From: a virus
Virus record (IMG/VR): IMGVR_UViG_3300010316_000005
Coordinates: 1 to 64,000 of that record
DNA length: 64,000 nt
Direction: 5' to 3' (one strand)
Shown here: one piece after another, positions 2,733 through 44,149 of the stretch
How the letters are laid out: each line of letters begins with the position of its first letter
How positions within the stretch are numbered: position 1 is the first letter of the stretch
The notes under the pieces: generated by a model
Databases searched by the model: none
What the model was told of the DNA's origin: nothing
What the model saw: the letters and a program-made list of their open reading frames with translations, nothing else
Program-made: the position numbers and the translations under genes

Positions 2733-3620
2733 TTATTTTCTACAATTTATTCCATGCCATCTGCTATAGTTGCCAGGTGATATATTTTGTTTCCCACAAT
2801 TTTCACAACACTTAAAGTTAACAGTTTTCCATTCATCACTATTTTGAGTTTCTGATAATTTTCTTGAAGCTTCTTTACCTTTGGTAAGTTTCCATTCTTT
2901 GGATTGTTTAGTGATTGACATTGATTTATATGCCTCTAGACCCACGGTTTCTAACCAAATTGGATTTGACTTTGTAGTAAGTTCCTTTTCTTTAGCAGCT
3001 TTACCTATCGTAGACTTCCATCCCAGGTCATTCTTCTTCTCAAGATCTTTCCGAACTTTTTCCTTTCCTACAGTGGCTTTCCACACAGGATCGTTTTGTA
3101 TTTCTGAAGATTGTTTTGCAACATATTTTCCTGTTGTTTCTTTCCATTCTTTACTAAGCTTTGTTTCTGAAATCTTTTTTTTGTGGTAATCTGATTTGCT
3201 TTTACCTCTTAATGCGTTAGATATACCTTCATTTTGTTCCTTAGAATTTTTTCTTCCTCTATTTCCGATGGATATTTTTCTTTTTGTTTCTTCTGAATGT
3301 GGTCCACTATTATAGAATCGTTCGTTGTGTATAGACATATTAATATACATAGGATTTTTGTGGACATTGAAATATTCTTGAAAATATATTTCCTTTAAGA
3401 TTGCCTCTTTTCGGGTTTTGTGTTTGGTTAATATTACAGTTTTAAATGATTTTCTATTTGTTCTAATTTCTCTTTTCCATATTTTAGAATATTTGTCGGA
3501 ACCAACTGATCCATGATATCCATTTTCCAAGATGTTCGATACAGAAGTGTATCCTATGTAAAATGGTGGCATTTTGTTGCCACCATAAAAAGTTATATAT
3601 GTGCAAAAAACCATTGACAT
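2733..3620 (-). CDS. free-standing GIY-YIG-like homing endonuclease with NUMOD3-like and tandem W..T.G repeats
   Basis: TYIT..FYIGYT..YHGS, HSEETKRKIS, C-terminal CENC..RWHG..C; AT-rich, antisense to neighbours. Confidence 0.75.
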   Translation of the reverse strand: MSMVFCTYITFYGGNKMPPFYIGYTSVSNILENGYHGSVGSDKYSKIWKREIRTNRKSFKTVILTKHKTRKEAILKEIYFQEYFNVHKNPMYINMSIHNERFYNSGPHSEETKRKISIGNRGRKNSKEQNEGISNALRGKSKSDYHKKKISETKLSKEWKETTGKYVAKQSSEIQNDPVWKATVGKEKVRKDLEKKNDLGWKSTIGKAAKEKELTTKSNPIWLETVGLEAYKSMSITKQSKEWKLTKGKEASRKLSETQNSDEWKTVNFKCCENCGKQNISPGNYSRWHGINCRK

Positions 3621-4927: not shown

Positions 4928-5359
4928 ATGAACTACGCAGAAAATCCAATTGAAGATTTGCACAATGCTATGGCCCACGCTGAATACGAGGGCTTTAGTA
5001 ATATTCACTATGAAACCCGAGACTGGGAGTTGTATAAATCAAGTGACCGCAAAGAAGACAAACGTATCCCTAAGACACGCAGGCCTACTACAAGAGACTT
5101 TGGTGTATACGCAATGTTCCCCCAAACGTGGGGCAGCACTGCGCTAGGACACGGCGGAATGGGCGGAGCGTCAATGACCACTGCGTACACTATTGTACTA
5201 GAATGTACAAACACCGGAGAGTTTTTGGTTTACTTTGGCGGGAGTTATTGTTACACGATCAAAGGAAAAAACGATGCTTTCCTTGAAGATTGTAAAAATA
5301 GATGTCTTGCTGGGAAGCGTAAAGCAAAAACAAAATACGGAATCGTAGAGCAGGATTAA
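4928..5359 (+). CDS. conserved phage hypothetical protein (probably with a replaced C-terminus)
   Basis: AGGAG RBS; FPQTWGSTALG motif; stop shared with convergent HEG. Confidence 0.8.
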   Translation: MNYAENPIEDLHNAMAHAEYEGFSNIHYETRDWELYKSSDRKEDKRIPKTRRPTTRDFGVYAMFPQTWGSTALGHGGMGGASMTTAYTIVLECTNTGEFLVYFGGSYCYTIKGKNDAFLEDCKNRCLAGKRKAKTKYGIVEQD

Positions 5360-5368
5360 TCCTGCTCT
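5347..5368. repeat. 22-bp perfect palindrome centred on shared TTAA stops
   Basis: AGAGCAGGATTAATCCTGCTCT; both convergent ORFs end EQD*. Confidence 0.9.
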
Positions 5369-6165
5369 CTATTTTTAATATCTTCTAACAAAGAAAGTAA
5401 CTTTTCTTTTGATCCAAGATTCCACCTTCTTGGTAACTTTATATTCTTGCTTAATGCTATTTCTTTTATTTCTTCTCTTATATAGTTGAGTTTAGAATAT
5501 GTTTTTCTTTGTATTTCGCCACCTAAAAAGTGGTGGGTCCCGTTGTCGATTCTTTTCTTGTGTGTTTTTCTTTGTATTTCACCACTTGAAAAGTTATGTT
5601 TTCCTTTAGCAGACAACTCAAATTGCGTGTTGCGTTGAACATCACTATTTAAGAAATGATGTGTTCCGTCTTCTATCCTCTTGCGTTGACTTTCAATCAT
5701 CTTTTTTCTAACATCATCTCTTTGAGACGAATGCCTTCCTTCTTTTAACATTCGCTCATTCATATCTTTTCCTAAAAACGGATGAGAGCCATTTTCAATC
5801 CTTATTTTATTGTTTTTTGATTTTTCTTCGGAGTCAAGCCAATGATGTGTTCCGTCTTGGATTCTCCTTTTTGCCAAGTCGCTGGCAGTTTTTGAATCAA
5901 TGCCTTCTGCTGATTCGGGTATTAAGTTTGCCCATTCTTTGGATTCTACGATATTCCAAAGATTACTATAATACAGTCCGGTTTCTTTGATTTCTTCTTT
6001 GTTATCTGTTTCTAAAAGTAATTCTGTGCTAATATCGTCGCCGTGTGTTTTTATGTGTCGTATCCAATGTTTACCAGACCCTTTATATTCATTTGGATCA
6101 TTTTTTGTGTAGCCGAGATATTTTAATCCAGTTTTGTTGTGTGTTTTAACATATAAATAATACAT
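5356..6165 (-). CDS. Seg-like GIY-YIG homing endonuclease with G-x-H-x-F repeats
   Basis: YLYVKTHNKTGLKYLGYT..YKGSGKHW; repeats DGTHHW, NGSHPF, DGTHHF, KGKHNF, NGTHHF. Confidence 0.75.
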   Translation of the reverse strand: MYYLYVKTHNKTGLKYLGYTKNDPNEYKGSGKHWIRHIKTHGDDISTELLLETDNKEEIKETGLYYSNLWNIVESKEWANLIPESAEGIDSKTASDLAKRRIQDGTHHWLDSEEKSKNNKIRIENGSHPFLGKDMNERMLKEGRHSSQRDDVRKKMIESQRKRIEDGTHHFLNSDVQRNTQFELSAKGKHNFSSGEIQRKTHKKRIDNGTHHFLGGEIQRKTYSKLNYIREEIKEIALSKNIKLPRRWNLGSKEKLLSLLEDIKNREQD

Positions 6166-6247
6166 TGCTGTTGCTCCTTCATTTTGTTTAGCAATAGAGT
6201 AGTTGGGATGCCCGCCAAGAAATCCGTGAACTACACTTTTATTTATA
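6166..6247 (-). ncRNA. putative structured cis-regulatory leader RNA of HEG (copy 1), preceded by TATAAATA
   Basis: Shares stems and TTGGCG loop with 36887-36963, with compensatory changes. Confidence 0.6.
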
Positions 6248-6255
6248 CAAAGTTG

Positions 6256-6285
6256 TTGACAACCATTGGAGAACTGTGCTATAGT
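6256..6285 (+). promoter_or_regulatory. sigma70 promoter restarting downstream transcription
   Basis: TTGACA-18-TATAGT with TG extension. Confidence 0.55.
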
Positions 6286-6384
6286 GTAGAGAGAAAAAGT
6301 AAAAACATCAACGTGTTTGTTGAAGATTGCGCAAATCGCTGTCTAGTAAGCAAGAGAAAGAGCGAAAAGTATCATGGGAATTAA
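6268..6384 (+). pseudogene. relic 3' end of the 4928 gene
   Basis: GELCYSV..VFVEDCANRCLVSKRKSEKY aligns with GSYCYTI..AFLEDCKNRCLAGKRKAKTKY. Confidence 0.8.
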
Positions 6385-15640: not shown

Positions 15641-16672
15641 ATGTTTAACAATACAATACAGCGGATCGGTTTTGCGTGTAAGTACATGTACCCTGACCAA
15701 TCAATTAAGAAGCAGCTACTCGAAGAGTATCAGCGGCCTCTTAACAATCGTTCTACAACAGTTTCTTGGCTCAATCGACAGACTCGCGATGTTGCCGAAG
15801 AGCGCCTGTGGGACTTAATGCAACACAATATACAAAGTTTTGAAAACTTAGTTAGATACGTAGGATCTCTGCCACATGATTTACGAATGGTCCGCCTTGG
15901 AAGTGACGTTTTGCCTGTTTATACTCAGTCTAGTTGGAGTTATTTTTGGCGCCTTAGCGATACACAAGGGTATTGTGAACGAGCGTTCCGTCGCGTGGGT
16001 GAGATTGCACGTGAGCTTGATGTTCGCTTGTCTATGCATCCTGGCCAGTTCTGCTGTTTCGCATCTGATCGTGAAGATGTTGTCCTTCGTAGCATAGAAG
16101 AATTTGAGTACCACGTAGACGTAATACGATGGATGGGCTATGGCAAGCAATTCCAAGACTTTAAGTGTAACATTCACGTGTCAGGACGCAATGGAGTAGA
16201 GGGCGTAAAGCAAGCTTTAAAAAAAATAACACCCGAAGCGCGAAATGTTATTACTTTCGAAAATGATGAATATTCCTGCGGAGTCGATCAGTTAATTGAA
16301 CTTGCTGATCATGCTGCGTTAGTATTTGATAGCCACCATCACTTCATACATTCCGGCGAACATATGTATCCCAACGATGACCGTTATCAAAAAATATTAG
16401 AAAGTTGGAGAGGTGTTCGTCCTGCAATGCACTATTCTGCTAGCAGAGAAGAATACCTACTAGACGCAGACAAACTTCCTGTAATGGATGATTTACTAGC
16501 AGCAGGCTACAAGCGAGGGAAACTTAGAGCGCATAGTGATTATTATACCAATCACGCCCTTAGTGACCTAATATACGAGTTTTGGCAATATTCTGATATT
16601 ATGTGCGAGTCGAAGGCAAAGAACTTGTCGAGCATTCAGTTATACGAATACTTTAAACAGCAACATATGTAA
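15641..16672 (+). CDS. uvsE: UV-damage endonuclease
   Basis: RIGFACK, RLSMHPGQF, FENDE, FDSHHH, HYS, AHSD, ESKAK; promoter TTGACT-17-TATAAT at 15607-15635. Confidence 0.92.
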   Translation: MFNNTIQRIGFACKYMYPDQSIKKQLLEEYQRPLNNRSTTVSWLNRQTRDVAEERLWDLMQHNIQSFENLVRYVGSLPHDLRMVRLGSDVLPVYTQSSWSYFWRLSDTQGYCERAFRRVGEIARELDVRLSMHPGQFCCFASDREDVVLRSIEEFEYHVDVIRWMGYGKQFQDFKCNIHVSGRNGVEGVKQALKKITPEARNVITFENDEYSCGVDQLIELADHAALVFDSHHHFIHSGEHMYPNDDRYQKILESWRGVRPAMHYSASREEYLLDADKLPVMDDLLAAGYKRGKLRAHSDYYTNHALSDLIYEFWQYSDIMCESKAKNLSSIQLYEYFKQQHM

Positions 16673-17333
16673 ATCTTTTATTGCCGGCGTCATCTATATA
16701 TTGTTTTCTCTTCATTCCTTCGTATTTCTTCTTTCTAGTCTCAGCAGCCCTTTTTGAAATGTCTGATCTTTTTTCTGGAGACATATCTTTTACCCTCTGT
16801 TGTGCTGCTATTTTATAAGATTCGATGGCAGCACTAGATCTCTTTTCGCCTTTTCTTGACTCAAGCAGTTCTATCTGTTGTTTTCTATAGTCTTCGTCTT
16901 GCCACCGCGTTTTCATCGACGCAGATATGCTGTTTCTTCCTGCTAAGGTCTTTGTGTCTTTGCCCCTGTTTGAATTTCCGCTCTTGATTTTATTTTCTGG
17001 TGTATGAGTTTTTCCATAAAACCCGTTGTCAGCGCCTCTATTAACGGGGGGTCGGGCACCTTCCGTAATATTAGTCAAATTACTAATGCCTATGGTTTCT
17101 ATTAAGTGTTCTTCATAATCATATGCGAGTTGCTCGTCGACAAAATATTTTATTATTTCTACTACAGGTTCTAGTTCTTGCTTGTGTAGTTCTTTGATAA
17201 GACTGTCTTTATAATAGTTATTATTGCCATCCGTGAACTGGTTATGGGTATGTGCCCTGTTACCAGTTCCTTTGCCTATATAAAAGACAGTGTTCGAACG
17301 AGGGTCTATAAGTTGGTATACGTAGTATTTCAT
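16653..17333 (-). CDS. GIY-YIG (LEM-3-like) homing endonuclease with NUMOD3
   Basis: YYVYQLIDPR..FYIGKG..R, LTNI, FYGKTHT; tail-to-tail overlap with uvsE. Confidence 0.8.
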   Translation of the reverse strand: MKYYVYQLIDPRSNTVFYIGKGTGNRAHTHNQFTDGNNNYYKDSLIKELHKQELEPVVEIIKYFVDEQLAYDYEEHLIETIGISNLTNITEGARPPVNRGADNGFYGKTHTPENKIKSGNSNRGKDTKTLAGRNSISASMKTRWQDEDYRKQQIELLESRKGEKRSSAAIESYKIAAQQRVKDMSPEKRSDISKRAAETRKKKYEGMKRKQYIDDAGNKRFTYVAV

Positions 17334-20623: not shown

Positions 20624-28615
<7,992 letters not shown>

Positions 28616-35865: not shown

Positions 35866-36234
35866 ATGACTAATATATTTAAAGATTCAAAGGACTTCAT
35901 GGTGGCCATTGATCAGCACGAACCTAACCAAGCACAATTTGACTTGTATGTTAAACTAATCGACGAAGAACATAGCGAACTACATGACGCAATTGAAGCA
36001 GATGATCGGGTGGAGCAGCTCGACGCTCTTGTTGACATCTTAGTTGTAACTGCCGGAGCAATCAACTCAATGGGTGCAGATGGCGAAGGCGCGTGGAACG
36101 AAGTGATGCGCACTAACTTTGCTAAGGTCGATCCAGAAACAGGCAAGGTTCGCAGACGCGAGGACGGAAAAGTTTTGAAAGGGCCTAATTGGGTTCCGCC
36201 TAATTTAGAGCCTTTCTTGTCTAAATTAAAGTAA
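35866..36234 (+). CDS. MazG/PRA-PH-like NTP pyrophosphohydrolase (probably with a replaced C-terminus)
   Basis: LIDEEHSEL..DALVDILVV..EVMRTNFAK..REDGKVLK. Confidence 0.85.
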   Translation: MTNIFKDSKDFMVAIDQHEPNQAQFDLYVKLIDEEHSELHDAIEADDRVEQLDALVDILVVTAGAINSMGADGEGAWNEVMRTNFAKVDPETGKVRRREDGKVLKGPNWVPPNLEPFLSKLK

Positions 36235-36886
36235 ATCTGTTTTTATACAATTTGTTAGGATTATACCTAACAGCCCAAAATAGTCCGCTGCGGTTTATCC
36301 CTAGCGGACTTATTTTTTCTTCAAAATTATGTCTATTGAACATTGTCCGTTCTCCAGTGTGCATGTCTAGTAGTACATAATCTTTAACAGGAATTGGTCG
36401 AATTTCGTTTCGACGCTTAACTCCTTCTGAAATCTTTTTAGAAACTTTTTTAGAGGTAGTATTACCGTAATTCCAGTGGCTTTTTCCAGTCATGCGATCT
36501 ATGTGTTGAGCCACTCTTTCTTTGTCATCTTTCCAGCCGTGTCCTTTCTTTGCTTTAGAAATGTTTGCCTTTGTTTCTTTTGACATTACCCAGCCAGCAT
36601 TGCCATCGCCGCCGTCTGTTTTATTATGTAATATGCCAGTACCGTTGTCTATGCGCCCATGCCATCTTATTAGGCGCCGTTCTAATGCTAACGCGCCTAC
36701 ATCTGTTAGATTAGATTCTAAGATGAAAATATTCGAAAAGTCTTTTTTTGGAAATATAGTTCTGTCTGATCTAGCCCATGCTCGTTTACCACATCCTTTA
36801 CCTATGTAATAAGGTGTTCCGTTATCTCTTATGTAAGCATAGACGTAAAAATCTTTAGGCAAGTTGTTTTTAGAGTAAATATTCAT
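36221..36886 (-). CDS. GIY-YIG homing endonuclease
   Basis: FYVYAYIRDNGTPYYIGKG..R, LHNKTDGGDG, SKETKANIS; tail-to-tail overlap. Confidence 0.8.
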   Translation of the reverse strand: MNIYSKNNLPKDFYVYAYIRDNGTPYYIGKGCGKRAWARSDRTIFPKKDFSNIFILESNLTDVGALALERRLIRWHGRIDNGTGILHNKTDGGDGNAGWVMSKETKANISKAKKGHGWKDDKERVAQHIDRMTGKSHWNYGNTTSKKVSKKISEGVKRRNEIRPIPVKDYVLLDMHTGERTMFNRHNFEEKISPLGINRSGLFWAVRYNPNKLYKNRFTLI

Positions 36887-36963
36887 GCTGATAGTTCCTT
36901 TTAAAATTCAACTGTTAGAGTAGTCAGGTACGCCAATACCGTGGACTACACTTATATTTATAC
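36887..36963 (-). ncRNA. putative structured cis-regulatory leader RNA of HEG (copy 2)
   Basis: TATAAATA then GTAGTC..GGTA-TTGGCG-TACC..GACTAC; homologous to 6166-6247. Confidence 0.6.
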
Positions 36964-37043: not shown

Positions 37044-37099
37044 CCGTTGACTCCTTGTAATTTTTATGCTATAGTGTAATGAATTACAAGGAGACTTTT

Positions 37100-43272: not shown

Positions 43273-43998
43273 TTACTCGTCGCCGTAAATGTCGAGTACC
43301 TCTTTAACTGCTTCATGACGTTCAACGTCTTTTCTTTCAAAGTGAATCATTTCAATTCTCTGAGAATGTTTGTTTTCATAGTGACGTATGAAATCTACAA
43401 GACCATTATCCTTTAGTCGATCTGCTTGATACAAGTCACCTGTTACTGCCATATACGAATCATTACCTAATCGTGTTAGTAACATCTTCATTTGACTTGG
43501 TGTTGCATTTTGCATTTCGTCTGCAATAATGTATGCGTTTTTGAACGTTCTTCCTCGCATATATGATAGCGGAGCAATTTCAATAACTCCTTCTGCGATC
43601 ATACCTGTAATTTCTCTTGAGTCAAAATACTCACGTAGCACATCAAAAATCGGGCGCGTCCACGGCGCCATCTTTTCTTCAAGAGTACCCGGAAGGGCTC
43701 CTAAATCTTCGTCAACTGATACTGCTGGTCTTGTAACAATGATCTTGTCGACTAGTCCTTCTTTGAAACTTTTTACTGCTACTTGCACAGCTAATAGTGT
43801 TTTACCTGTTCCTGCTGGTCCAATTCCAAAGACTATGTCTTTACCCGGATCCAATAGATTTAACACGTAGGTTTCCTGATTTAAATTTCTTGGAAGTATT
43901 GATACTACTGTTTTCTTTTTTTGAAAAGAATTAATGTTAACTACGTTCTCTTTGTAGTTGTTACGAGGTTGCTTTCTCGAAGCTCTAGCTTTACCCAT
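43273..43998 (-). CDS. phoH: PhoH-family ATPase
   Basis: GPAGTGKT, TRPAV, LPG, YMRGRT, ADEMQN, GD..Q.D. Confidence 0.95.
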   Translation of the reverse strand: MGKARASRKQPRNNYKENVVNINSFQKKKTVVSILPRNLNQETYVLNLLDPGKDIVFGIGPAGTGKTLLAVQVAVKSFKEGLVDKIIVTRPAVSVDEDLGALPGTLEEKMAPWTRPIFDVLREYFDSREITGMIAEGVIEIAPLSYMRGRTFKNAYIIADEMQNATPSQMKMLLTRLGNDSYMAVTGDLYQADRLKDNGLVDFIRHYENKHSQRIEMIHFERKDVERHEAVKEVLDIYGDE

Positions 43999-44149
43999 TA
44001 AGTGTCCTCCTTAGGGAAATGTGTAAGGACGAAGTCGCTAAGGACTATGCGCCCTTACAAATGTATTTATCCCCATTTTGTAATCGTTAAAAGATCACTT
44101 AACTTTTTAATTGCGATAAATAAGTATAATAAAAGTAGGTACAACCATT

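Follow-up and report, generated by a model that had tools for sequence, protein, structure and literature searches.

Homing endonucleases harm their carrier unless they are held at low levels and made late, and the textbook account of their control rests on a handful of T4 genes. Here, we describe a module of about 95 bases that precedes two nuclease genes in a 64,000-nucleotide stretch of virus DNA (hereafter the window), covering positions 1 to 64,000 of the 175,736-bp IMG/VR record IMGVR_UViG_3300010316_000005. On the minus strand, the parts of the module follow one another in the order T4-type late box (N)ATAAATA, 5 nt, a bulged hairpin (P1), a small hairpin (P2), the motif CAGC, 5 nt and TATTTA(T). 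We propose that it is a two-way cassette, in which facing late promoters would yield a nuclease mRNA with a structured 5' untranslated region (UTR) and a cis-antisense RNA of 70-80 nt lying over that UTR, and we place about half of our confidence in this explanation.

In IS10/Tn10, facing promoters are found at the 5' end of the transposase gene, and a short stem-loop RNA, RNA-OUT, is complementary to the 5' end and the ribosome-binding site (RBS) of RNA-IN. These are host sigma-70 promoters with a 36-bp overlap, and RNA-OUT has been demonstrated experimentally, whereas the module described here has phage late promoters, an overlap comprising the whole 56-60-nt UTR and a two-hairpin antisense RNA that is predicted from sequence. 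T4-type genomes are also said, in a 2010 account by Arbiol et al., to carry PeSL cassettes, short portable promoter-early stem-loops located before unrelated open reading frames (ORFs) and thought to be recombination sites. Such cassettes would have early promoters and no specificity for nuclease genes, in contrast to the late boxes, the covariation and the exclusive nuclease association of the module.

Late promoters and RBS hairpins are already known on T4-family nuclease genes, where the inhibitory hairpin is present only in early/middle read-through transcripts and the late promoter lies inside the hairpin (PMC2988022). The control of I-TevI, I-TevII, I-TevIII, segB and Aeh1 mobE resembles the present case in having a late promoter directly upstream, a structure occluding the RBS and a nuclease kept low/late (PMC2988022). 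However, the hairpin at the Shine-Dalgarno sequence (SD) in our module lies downstream of the predicted late start and hence in late transcripts, and only a putative AU-only helix between the two boxes, P0 (TAAATA:TATTTA), would be specific to read-through. The module is also mostly antisense to its neighbours rather than co-oriented with them in an early/middle polycistronic unit, and it includes a second, inverted late box.

Dassa et al. (2009) described TATAAATA hairpins before free-standing GIY-YIG and Vsr-like endonuclease genes at 'fractured genes' in marine metagenomes; according to the passages of that paper on these loci, a 5' UTR hairpin was present in 15 of 16 loci and a late-promoter element in 10, with two conserved motifs complementary in the stem (PMC2677866). 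The environmental T4-like context and the presence of several endonuclease families are shared with our module, the match being one of description. In the same passages, the hairpins are read as sense-strand translational attenuators located between split-intein gene halves and co-oriented with the host gene, and they contain no report of an inverted box, an antisense RNA or a strand asymmetry (PMC2677866). A precedent in a T4-like phage for antisense RNA opposite a homing-endonuclease gene is CfrI of cyanophage S-PM2, which is co-expressed with that gene, measures about 225 nt and links psbA to F-CphI; the relevant sections of the two reports assign it no mechanism (PMC2984593, PMC12197685), and S-PM2 gave no match to the module.

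An earlier note on the window had drawn attention to two copies sharing stems, a bulge and a linker, and every feature that it listed is present on the minus strand. The copies themselves are real, although the 3' limit given to them was not correct, as the module runs about 10 nt further into the ORF, to TATTTA(T) at 6159-6153 in copy 1 and at 36881-36875 in copy 2. The late promoter TATAAATA, the inverted late box in codons 2-4 and the pairing statistics favouring the strand opposite the gene had been missed. The features of copy 1 are the following.

6152-6247, minus strand: complete module, copy 1.
6240-6247, minus strand: late-promoter box TATAAATA, recognised by its sequence; the nuclease mRNA start is predicted at G6234, the 6th nt past the box.
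6196-6237, minus strand: hairpin P1, from folding and from covariation in 59 and 114 relatives.
6234-6229 with 6204-6199, minus strand: 6-bp outer stem of P1, GTAGTT/AACTAC.
6225-6222 with 6209-6206, minus strand: inner stem of P1, GGAT/ATCC.
6228-6226, minus strand: CAC bulge of P1, whose further parts are AG/CT closing pairs, a T·T mismatch, a 12-nt loop and a 1-nt C bulge.
6198-6195, minus strand: TCTA linker.
6171-6194, minus strand: hairpin P2, from sequence and folding, TTGCT (6194-6190) with AGCAA (6175-6171).
6179-6174, minus strand: SD AAGGAG, whose 3' half is the 3' arm of P2.
6170-6167, minus strand: CAGC, followed by A and then by ATG at 6165-6163.
6152-6159, plus strand: inverted late box facing the first, TATAAATA on the plus strand and TATTTATA within nuclease codons 3-5; its proposed role is that of a putative antisense promoter.
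6165-6247, plus strand: predicted cis-antisense RNA with a start near 6165-6167, the complements of P2 and P1 and the U-rich tail TTTTATTTATA at 6237-6247; it is proposed because of the box geometry, the wobble asymmetry and this tail.
5356-6165, minus strand: nuclease ORF of 269 aa, starting MYYLYVKTHNKTGLKYLG, with GTHHFL-type repeats; it matches PHROG 12324, 'intron-like DNA endonuclease' (E 1.6e-13).

Copy 2 has the same organisation.

36875-36962, minus strand: complete module, copy 2.
36955-36962, minus strand: late-promoter box TATAAATA, with a predicted start at G36949.
36917-36952, minus strand: hairpin P1, GTAGTC (36949-36944) with GACTAC (36925-36920), CAC bulge, GGTA (36940-36937) with TACC (36930-36927), loop TTGGCG.
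36893-36913, minus strand: hairpin P2, AGTT (36913-36910) with AACT (36896-36893), adjoining the SD AAGGA (36900-36896); the TCTA linker is also present.
36890-36887, minus strand: CAGC, followed by ATG at 36886-36884 and TATTTAC at 36881-36875 (GTAAATA on the plus strand).
36221-36886, minus strand: nuclease ORF of 221 aa, with a GIY-YIG-type N-terminus (FYVYAYIR..GTPYYIGKG) and NUMOD3 (Pfam E 2.4e-7).

In both copies, the ATG lies 75-77 nt past TATAAATA, and compensatory changes distinguish copy 2 from copy 1 in both stems of P1 and in P2. The two encoded proteins share 14% identity, in agreement with the earlier description of them as dissimilar.

The record encodes T4-type replication genes, including a family B DNA polymerase (PHROG 262), a clamp loader and a ligase. 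The polymerase is nearest to those of jumbo T4-relatives, with Sinorhizobium phage Phosso (50% identity) followed by Atu_ph07 and 121Q-like phages. On both strands of this genome, ATAAATA is found 15-30 nt ahead of many SD and ATG sites, and the late promoter reported for T4-like cyanophages is NATAAATA (PMC2984593). Because of this placement before SD and start sites and the match to NATAAATA, TATAAATA is, on the evidence of motif and position, the late promoter of this phage, and the mRNA start is predicted at the first G of P1. The T4 late box is located about one helical turn upstream of the transcription start (PMC2988020).

Relatives of the module were collected from IMG/VR with two pattern scans and with models built from the hits. 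The first pattern fixed the arms of P1 and matched 83 loci, from which 59 distinct copies were aligned by the model (set 1). The second left P1 free (CTCTA..GGAG..CAGC-N5-TATTTA) and matched at least 120 stretches, from which 114 distinct copies were aligned (set 2). All counts given for set 2 and for the whole family are among the matches listed. Of 110 distinct hits of the second scan, 108 had a TAAATA-like late box and, after it, a P1-type hairpin, the stems of which were highly diverse; the family comprises at least 173 distinct copies overall. A covariance model built from the relatives found exactly three copies in the record (E 1e-12 to 1e-17, well outside what chance would give), the third at record positions 74600-74687, beyond the 64-kb window; model scans detected no member in T4, Aeh1, S-PM2, Phosso, Agrobacterium phage Atu_ph07 or Vibrio jumbo phage 2.275.O. 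Among cultured phages, searched by megablast and blastn with the region and with a typical copy, the only match was one degenerate copy in Rhizobium phage RHph_I1_18.

The earlier note had recognised no named RNA family in the element, and the database scans agree with it. Rfam 15 at the gathering threshold gave no hit in the whole window, and permissive E-value scans of copy 1 and of a further copy (L030) returned chance-level matches (E >2.9) with scores far under the gathering thresholds. ARAGORN found no tRNA or tmRNA, and a full-text literature search with the core sequence gave unrelated primer matches only.

The proposed pairs form in 95.5% of the alignment cells in set 1 (n = 59) and in 93.3% in set 2 (n = 114). 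The covariation score was 0.24 in set 1 and 0.37 in set 2, compared with 0.09 and 0.12 for shuffled alignments; none of 500 shuffles reached the observed value, and controls with slid partners stayed at or below 0.06. In the outer stem of P1, up to four pair types were observed per position in set 2 (e.g., AU 66, CG 25, GC 20 and UA 3). The inner stem and P2 likewise covary, P2 with GC 32, AU 22 and CG 2 in set 1 and GC 86 and AU 21 in set 2. The compensatory changes first read from two copies in the outer and inner stems, and the third stem described as overlapping the SD, are therefore borne out in the larger alignments.

Invariant positions comprise a C-R-C bulge, a T·T mismatch, the G-G/C-C base of the inner stem, UCUA, CAGC and the two boxes. 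CAGC, which the search pattern of set 1 did not fix, is kept in 57 of 59 copies and reads GCTG on the plus strand at the predicted antisense start; by eye, no conserved pairing partner for it was seen in the P1 loop or elsewhere. The invariant TTGGCG loop of the earlier note does not stand, as 84 distinct P1 loop sequences were found across the family. All 114 copies of set 2 have the C-R-C bulge (model positions 27-29), together with the T·T mismatch beside the closing pairs. None of the explanations considered here accounts for these two features, which may be recognised by a protein or an RNase.

A nuclease-like ORF was found downstream of every one of the IMG/VR copies. Pfam matches in these ORFs were to NUMOD3, HNH, HNH_3, HNH_5, GIY-YIG, SegE_GIY-YIG, the I-TevI DNA-binding domain, DUF723/zinc-finger and REase_MTES_1575, and the sole match foreign to nucleases was one weak hit to Rsc14 (E 1.8e-5). 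The module is thus common to unrelated enzymes, namely GIY-YIG subfamilies, three HNH Pfam families, the zinc-finger/DUF723 type and the REase_MTES_1575 type. In the window, the copy 2 nuclease additionally matches PHROG 15526 (E 1e-20, unknown function) and PHROG 314, 'homing endonuclease' (E 8.9e-5); a Pfam search with the copy 1 ORF gave no match.

This breadth bears on the suggestion of a switch that senses a protein or ligand, or of an RNA that serves the nuclease as a cofactor, a reading that now appears extremely improbable. A protein-binding site could be made up of the bulge, the U·U mismatch and the G-G/C-C pairs where the inner stem begins. However, a ligand switch is not supported, because the helices vary freely, no conserved alternative fold, junction or multi-helix core was found and the unpaired invariants are limited to C-R-C, U·U, UCUA and CAGC; the loops vary and flip, and Rfam holds no match. 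A module heading unrelated nuclease families cannot be a specific cofactor of any of them. What persists of the original suggestion is a cis-regulatory RNA tied to nuclease genes.

The feature that most directly concerns the opposite strand is the inner box. TATTTA is held at a fixed 5 nt past CAGC while the ATG slides, so that it is read as MxIY, MIF or MYL (offsets 5, 4 and 3), HNH proteins included. A box read in three frames at a fixed distance from CAGC is conserved at the nucleotide level, and it is kept in 55 of 59 copies in set 1, where the pattern left it free. On the other strand, TATTTA(T) gives (N)ATAAATA, 5 nt and GCUG, which is the late box inverted, and the box-N5-G geometry is the same on both sides. 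At the sequence level, facing boxes are therefore present around the 5' UTR. The two boxes have equal consensus strength, with the A preceding TAAATA found at a similar rate in sense (73%) and antisense (76%) boxes, regardless of the orientation of the neighbour.

The pairing statistics are asymmetric between the strands. In the P1 core of set 2, a set chosen without reference to P1, 9 pairs in 114 copies comprise 1006 Watson-Crick pairs, 0 G·U and 16 A·C, and the three core pairs of P2 show 0 G·U and 4 A·C, with C·A at the fourth pair in 21 copies. The P1 core of set 1 has 0 G·U and 1 A·C, and the A·C cases are spread over at least 12 stem backgrounds. Since each A·C of the gene strand becomes a G·U in an RNA read from the other strand, selection seems to have acted on pairing in a transcript antisense to the leader. 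The P1 of this opposite strand (mean -11.2 kcal/mol) has about 6 U among the next 10 nt, typically UUUAUUUAUC, compared with 2.5 on the gene strand; this U tail is complementary to the sense box plus its A-rich spacer.

From these features, we infer how the two-way cassette would operate. It would be a portable unit at the 5' edge of free-standing homing-endonuclease genes, with facing late boxes about 85 bp apart, both of which are expected to fire. The outer box, (N)ATAAATA, would drive the nuclease mRNA from the first G of P1, and this mRNA would carry P1 together with the weak pairing of P2 to the 3' half of the SD. The inner box (TATTTAT, codons 2-4) would drive an opposite-strand RNA from the G of GCUG, the complement of the invariant CAGC before the ATG. 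This putative antisense RNA would be complementary to the entire 5' UTR, including the SD, would fold as the complements of P2 and P1, and would terminate at the P1 complement and its U-rich tail after 70-80 nt. Each promoter would encode part of the other RNA, the U tract being the complement of the mRNA promoter and the antisense promoter supplying nuclease codons 2-4. The two RNAs would be late products that anneal along their entire length, helped by complementary loops that allow fast pairing, and this would lower the translation, and probably also the stability, of a potentially harmful nuclease mRNA. Collision of the facing polymerases could add to the repression.

Several observations weigh against an antisense function. 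The outermost closing pair of P1 is G·U in 28 and 12 copies of the two sets, the loop-closing pair is G·U in 11 cases against 4 of A·C, and P2 has 2 G·U in set 1. The P1 complement, with its invariant 3-nt bulge, A·A mismatch and AU-rich base, would be unusual for an intrinsic terminator, and a simple terminator scan around both copies did not list it. Both alignments came from a model that had itself been built on the gene strand, and set 2 was chosen for CAGC-N5-TATTTA, so that the conservation of these motifs is tested by set 1 alone. Strand-biased mutation could in principle be the source of the asymmetry. The opposite strand also folds more stably, but that comparison includes base composition and carries little weight.

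The upstream neighbour lies on the opposite strand in 115 of 167 copies (69%), and both neighbours are opposite in 77 of the 139 cases callable on both sides; the ORF calls behind both counts are crude. In this genome, each of the three copies runs against the genes on either side of it. In related loci, the flanking genes are T4-type, such as Gp23, UvsY, UvsW and PhoH, and no intein family was present among the 25 commonest Pfam families (of 39 found) in the ORFs flanking co-oriented copies.

A sense-only leader in the T4 style, possible but on balance unlikely, would have the late promoter drive the nuclease, with P1 as a 5'-terminal stabilising hairpin and P2 weakly masking the SD; P0 would lock the start region in read-through transcripts until late, and antisense transcription would be irrelevant. 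This logic is documented for the T4-family nuclease genes named above (PMC2988022), and TATAAATA hairpins stand upstream of free-standing endonuclease genes in the marine metagenomes covered by the passages on these loci in PMC2677866. The base of P1 coincides exactly with the predicted mRNA start, the peripheral G·U pairs favour the gene strand, and minimum-free-energy folds of read-through transcripts of copy 1, copy 2 and locus L031 close with P0. However, P0 was rejected as a helix of the module, since it shows no compensatory change and rare variants break its pairing. With 69% of upstream neighbours opposite, there is usually no read-through transcript to lock, and such a lock cannot be the reason why the inner box is conserved. 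Late transcripts start upstream of P2 and so retain it, whereas those of T4 escape their hairpin, and P2 alone contributes only about -2.4 kcal/mol. This reading also leaves unexplained the invariant CAGC and the P1-core count of 16 A·C with no G·U.

The same orientations raise the question of whether the opposite-strand features serve the neighbouring phage genes, with any effect on the nuclease incidental. A cassette usually inserted backwards would then carry an insulator or terminator (the P1 complement and its U tract) and outward promoters (the inverted late box and sigma-70-type promoters) that restore expression of the next gene. The prevalence of opposite neighbours on both sides fits this view, as do promoters adjoining the modules of the record, two of which lie in the window.

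6256-6285, plus strand: sigma-70-type promoter of the next plus-strand gene, TTGACA, 18 nt and TGcTATAGT, with 11/12 consensus matches and an extended -10 TG; it begins 9 nt past copy 1.
37047-37075, plus strand: sigma-70-type promoter of a plus-strand exonuclease gene beyond copy 2, with 10/12 matches and TG.

Such strong, near-consensus promoters (TTGAC-N17/18-TGcTATAGT) abut all three modules, the third at about 1530-1570 of locus L003, and are directed towards the adjoining phage gene. In the family as a whole, 36 of 172 copies (21%) have TTGAC on the other strand no more than 38 nt from the box, against a background of 4.3%, an enrichment of about 5-fold, and the motif was more common where the neighbour is opposite (28% vs 10%, p 0.009). 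T4 nuclease genes are also known to bear promoters for downstream genes (PMC2988022). Nevertheless, a function confined to the neighbours seems quite unlikely, given that the inner box is equally kept where the neighbour is co-oriented (75% vs 77% perfect), that a late promoter just upstream of a terminator-like hairpin would be a poor driver of the next gene, and that the covarying P2 and the invariant CAGC would be without a role. A TACACTATAGCA box upstream of both copies was considered as a part of the module and rejected, as it is the -10 element (TGcTATAGT) of the other-strand sigma-70-type promoter.

Around copy 1, the C-terminus of the plus-strand gene 4928-5359 (..CYTIKGKNDAFLEDCKNRCLAGKRKAKTKY.., 5250-5359) is duplicated as an orphan past the module (..CYSVERKSKNINVFVEDCANRCLVSKRKSEKY.., 6268-6384). 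The copy 1 cassette, including its leader, therefore looks inserted together with its own replacement gene end. The plus-strand promoter beside copy 1 has its -35 element on the cassette side and its -10 element within the orphan duplicate.

The P1 loops also show a pattern at the DNA level. Eight loop sequences co-occur with their own reverse complements, six times on the same stem. TTGGCG was counted 13 times against 9 for CGCCAA, and CGGCAA 11 times against 5 for TTGCCG, with six further pairs; the TTGGCG of the window is at 36931-36936. These flipped loops are the signature of repeated DNA-level inversion of a small hairpin.

Such flips, the position of copy 1 at the edge of an inserted segment, the almost purely Watson-Crick P1 core and the occurrence of the same module, down to the first four codons, before unrelated nuclease ORFs would all be compatible with a DNA-level feature. 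The module would then be a hairpin-forming boundary of a mobile cassette, used for recombination or shuffling of nuclease ORFs behind a common promoter, much like the promoter-stem-loop cassettes of T4-type phages, and kept uniform by gene conversion. We consider this very unlikely, because homologous exchange needs identity rather than compensation, and the P1 stems differ widely yet still pair. Transcripts are also indicated by the pair of promoter boxes, by the pairing with the SD and by the geometry of the U tract.

The module is abundant in environmental T4-like phages, exclusive to nuclease genes, strongly covarying and absent from Rfam. In the literature consulted, we found no description of the inverted box read in three frames, the strand asymmetry, the exclusive nuclease association across families or the predominance of backward insertion. 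In its broader form, our proposal is that free-standing homing-endonuclease genes in many uncultured T4-superfamily phages carry a self-contained antisense brake, in which one pair of hairpins is used on both strands and is swapped as a unit between unrelated nuclease families; we regard this as evenly balanced between true and false. If the antisense reading is true, a transposon-like or toxin-antitoxin-like RNA brake would be added to homing-endonuclease biology, and it would explain how nuclease genes can sit backwards between essential phage genes. The design of promoter and terminator would be bidirectional, very compact and probably readable by the T4 late machinery in laboratory use. 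Even read conservatively, the module constitutes a new RNA family that is well defined and has a clear genomic setting.

The third copy in the record (locus at record positions 73790-74687, minus strand; module score 62-65 bits) precedes a decayed nuclease ORF. Two in-frame TAG codons were observed, the first at the W position of relatives (YLIGWS), together with an apparent frameshift ahead of the C-terminal domain. Either the module outlived its gene or the decay is recent.

Other backward genes of the window present different upstream regions. An HNH/homing-endonuclease-like gene at 2733-3620 (minus strand) lacks the module and has a plain TATAAATA at 3651-3644 with a short UTR. A GIY-YIG gene with a LEM-3-like domain at 16653-17333 (minus strand) also lacks the module, with no late box in view. 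The PhoH gene (43273-43998, backward) has ATAAATA at 44070, and its 5' UTR (43999-44076, minus strand) contains a different long hairpin, TGTAAGG..CCTTACA, before a strong SD. On the plus strand, a single ORF at 20627-28615 encodes 2,662 aa. Finally, a palindromic hairpin with a perfect 9-bp stem (AGAGCAGGA TTAA TCCTGCTCT) and T-rich tails on either strand was identified at 5347-5368; situated between the convergent ends of gene 4928-5359 and the copy 1 nuclease gene, it looks like a two-way terminator.

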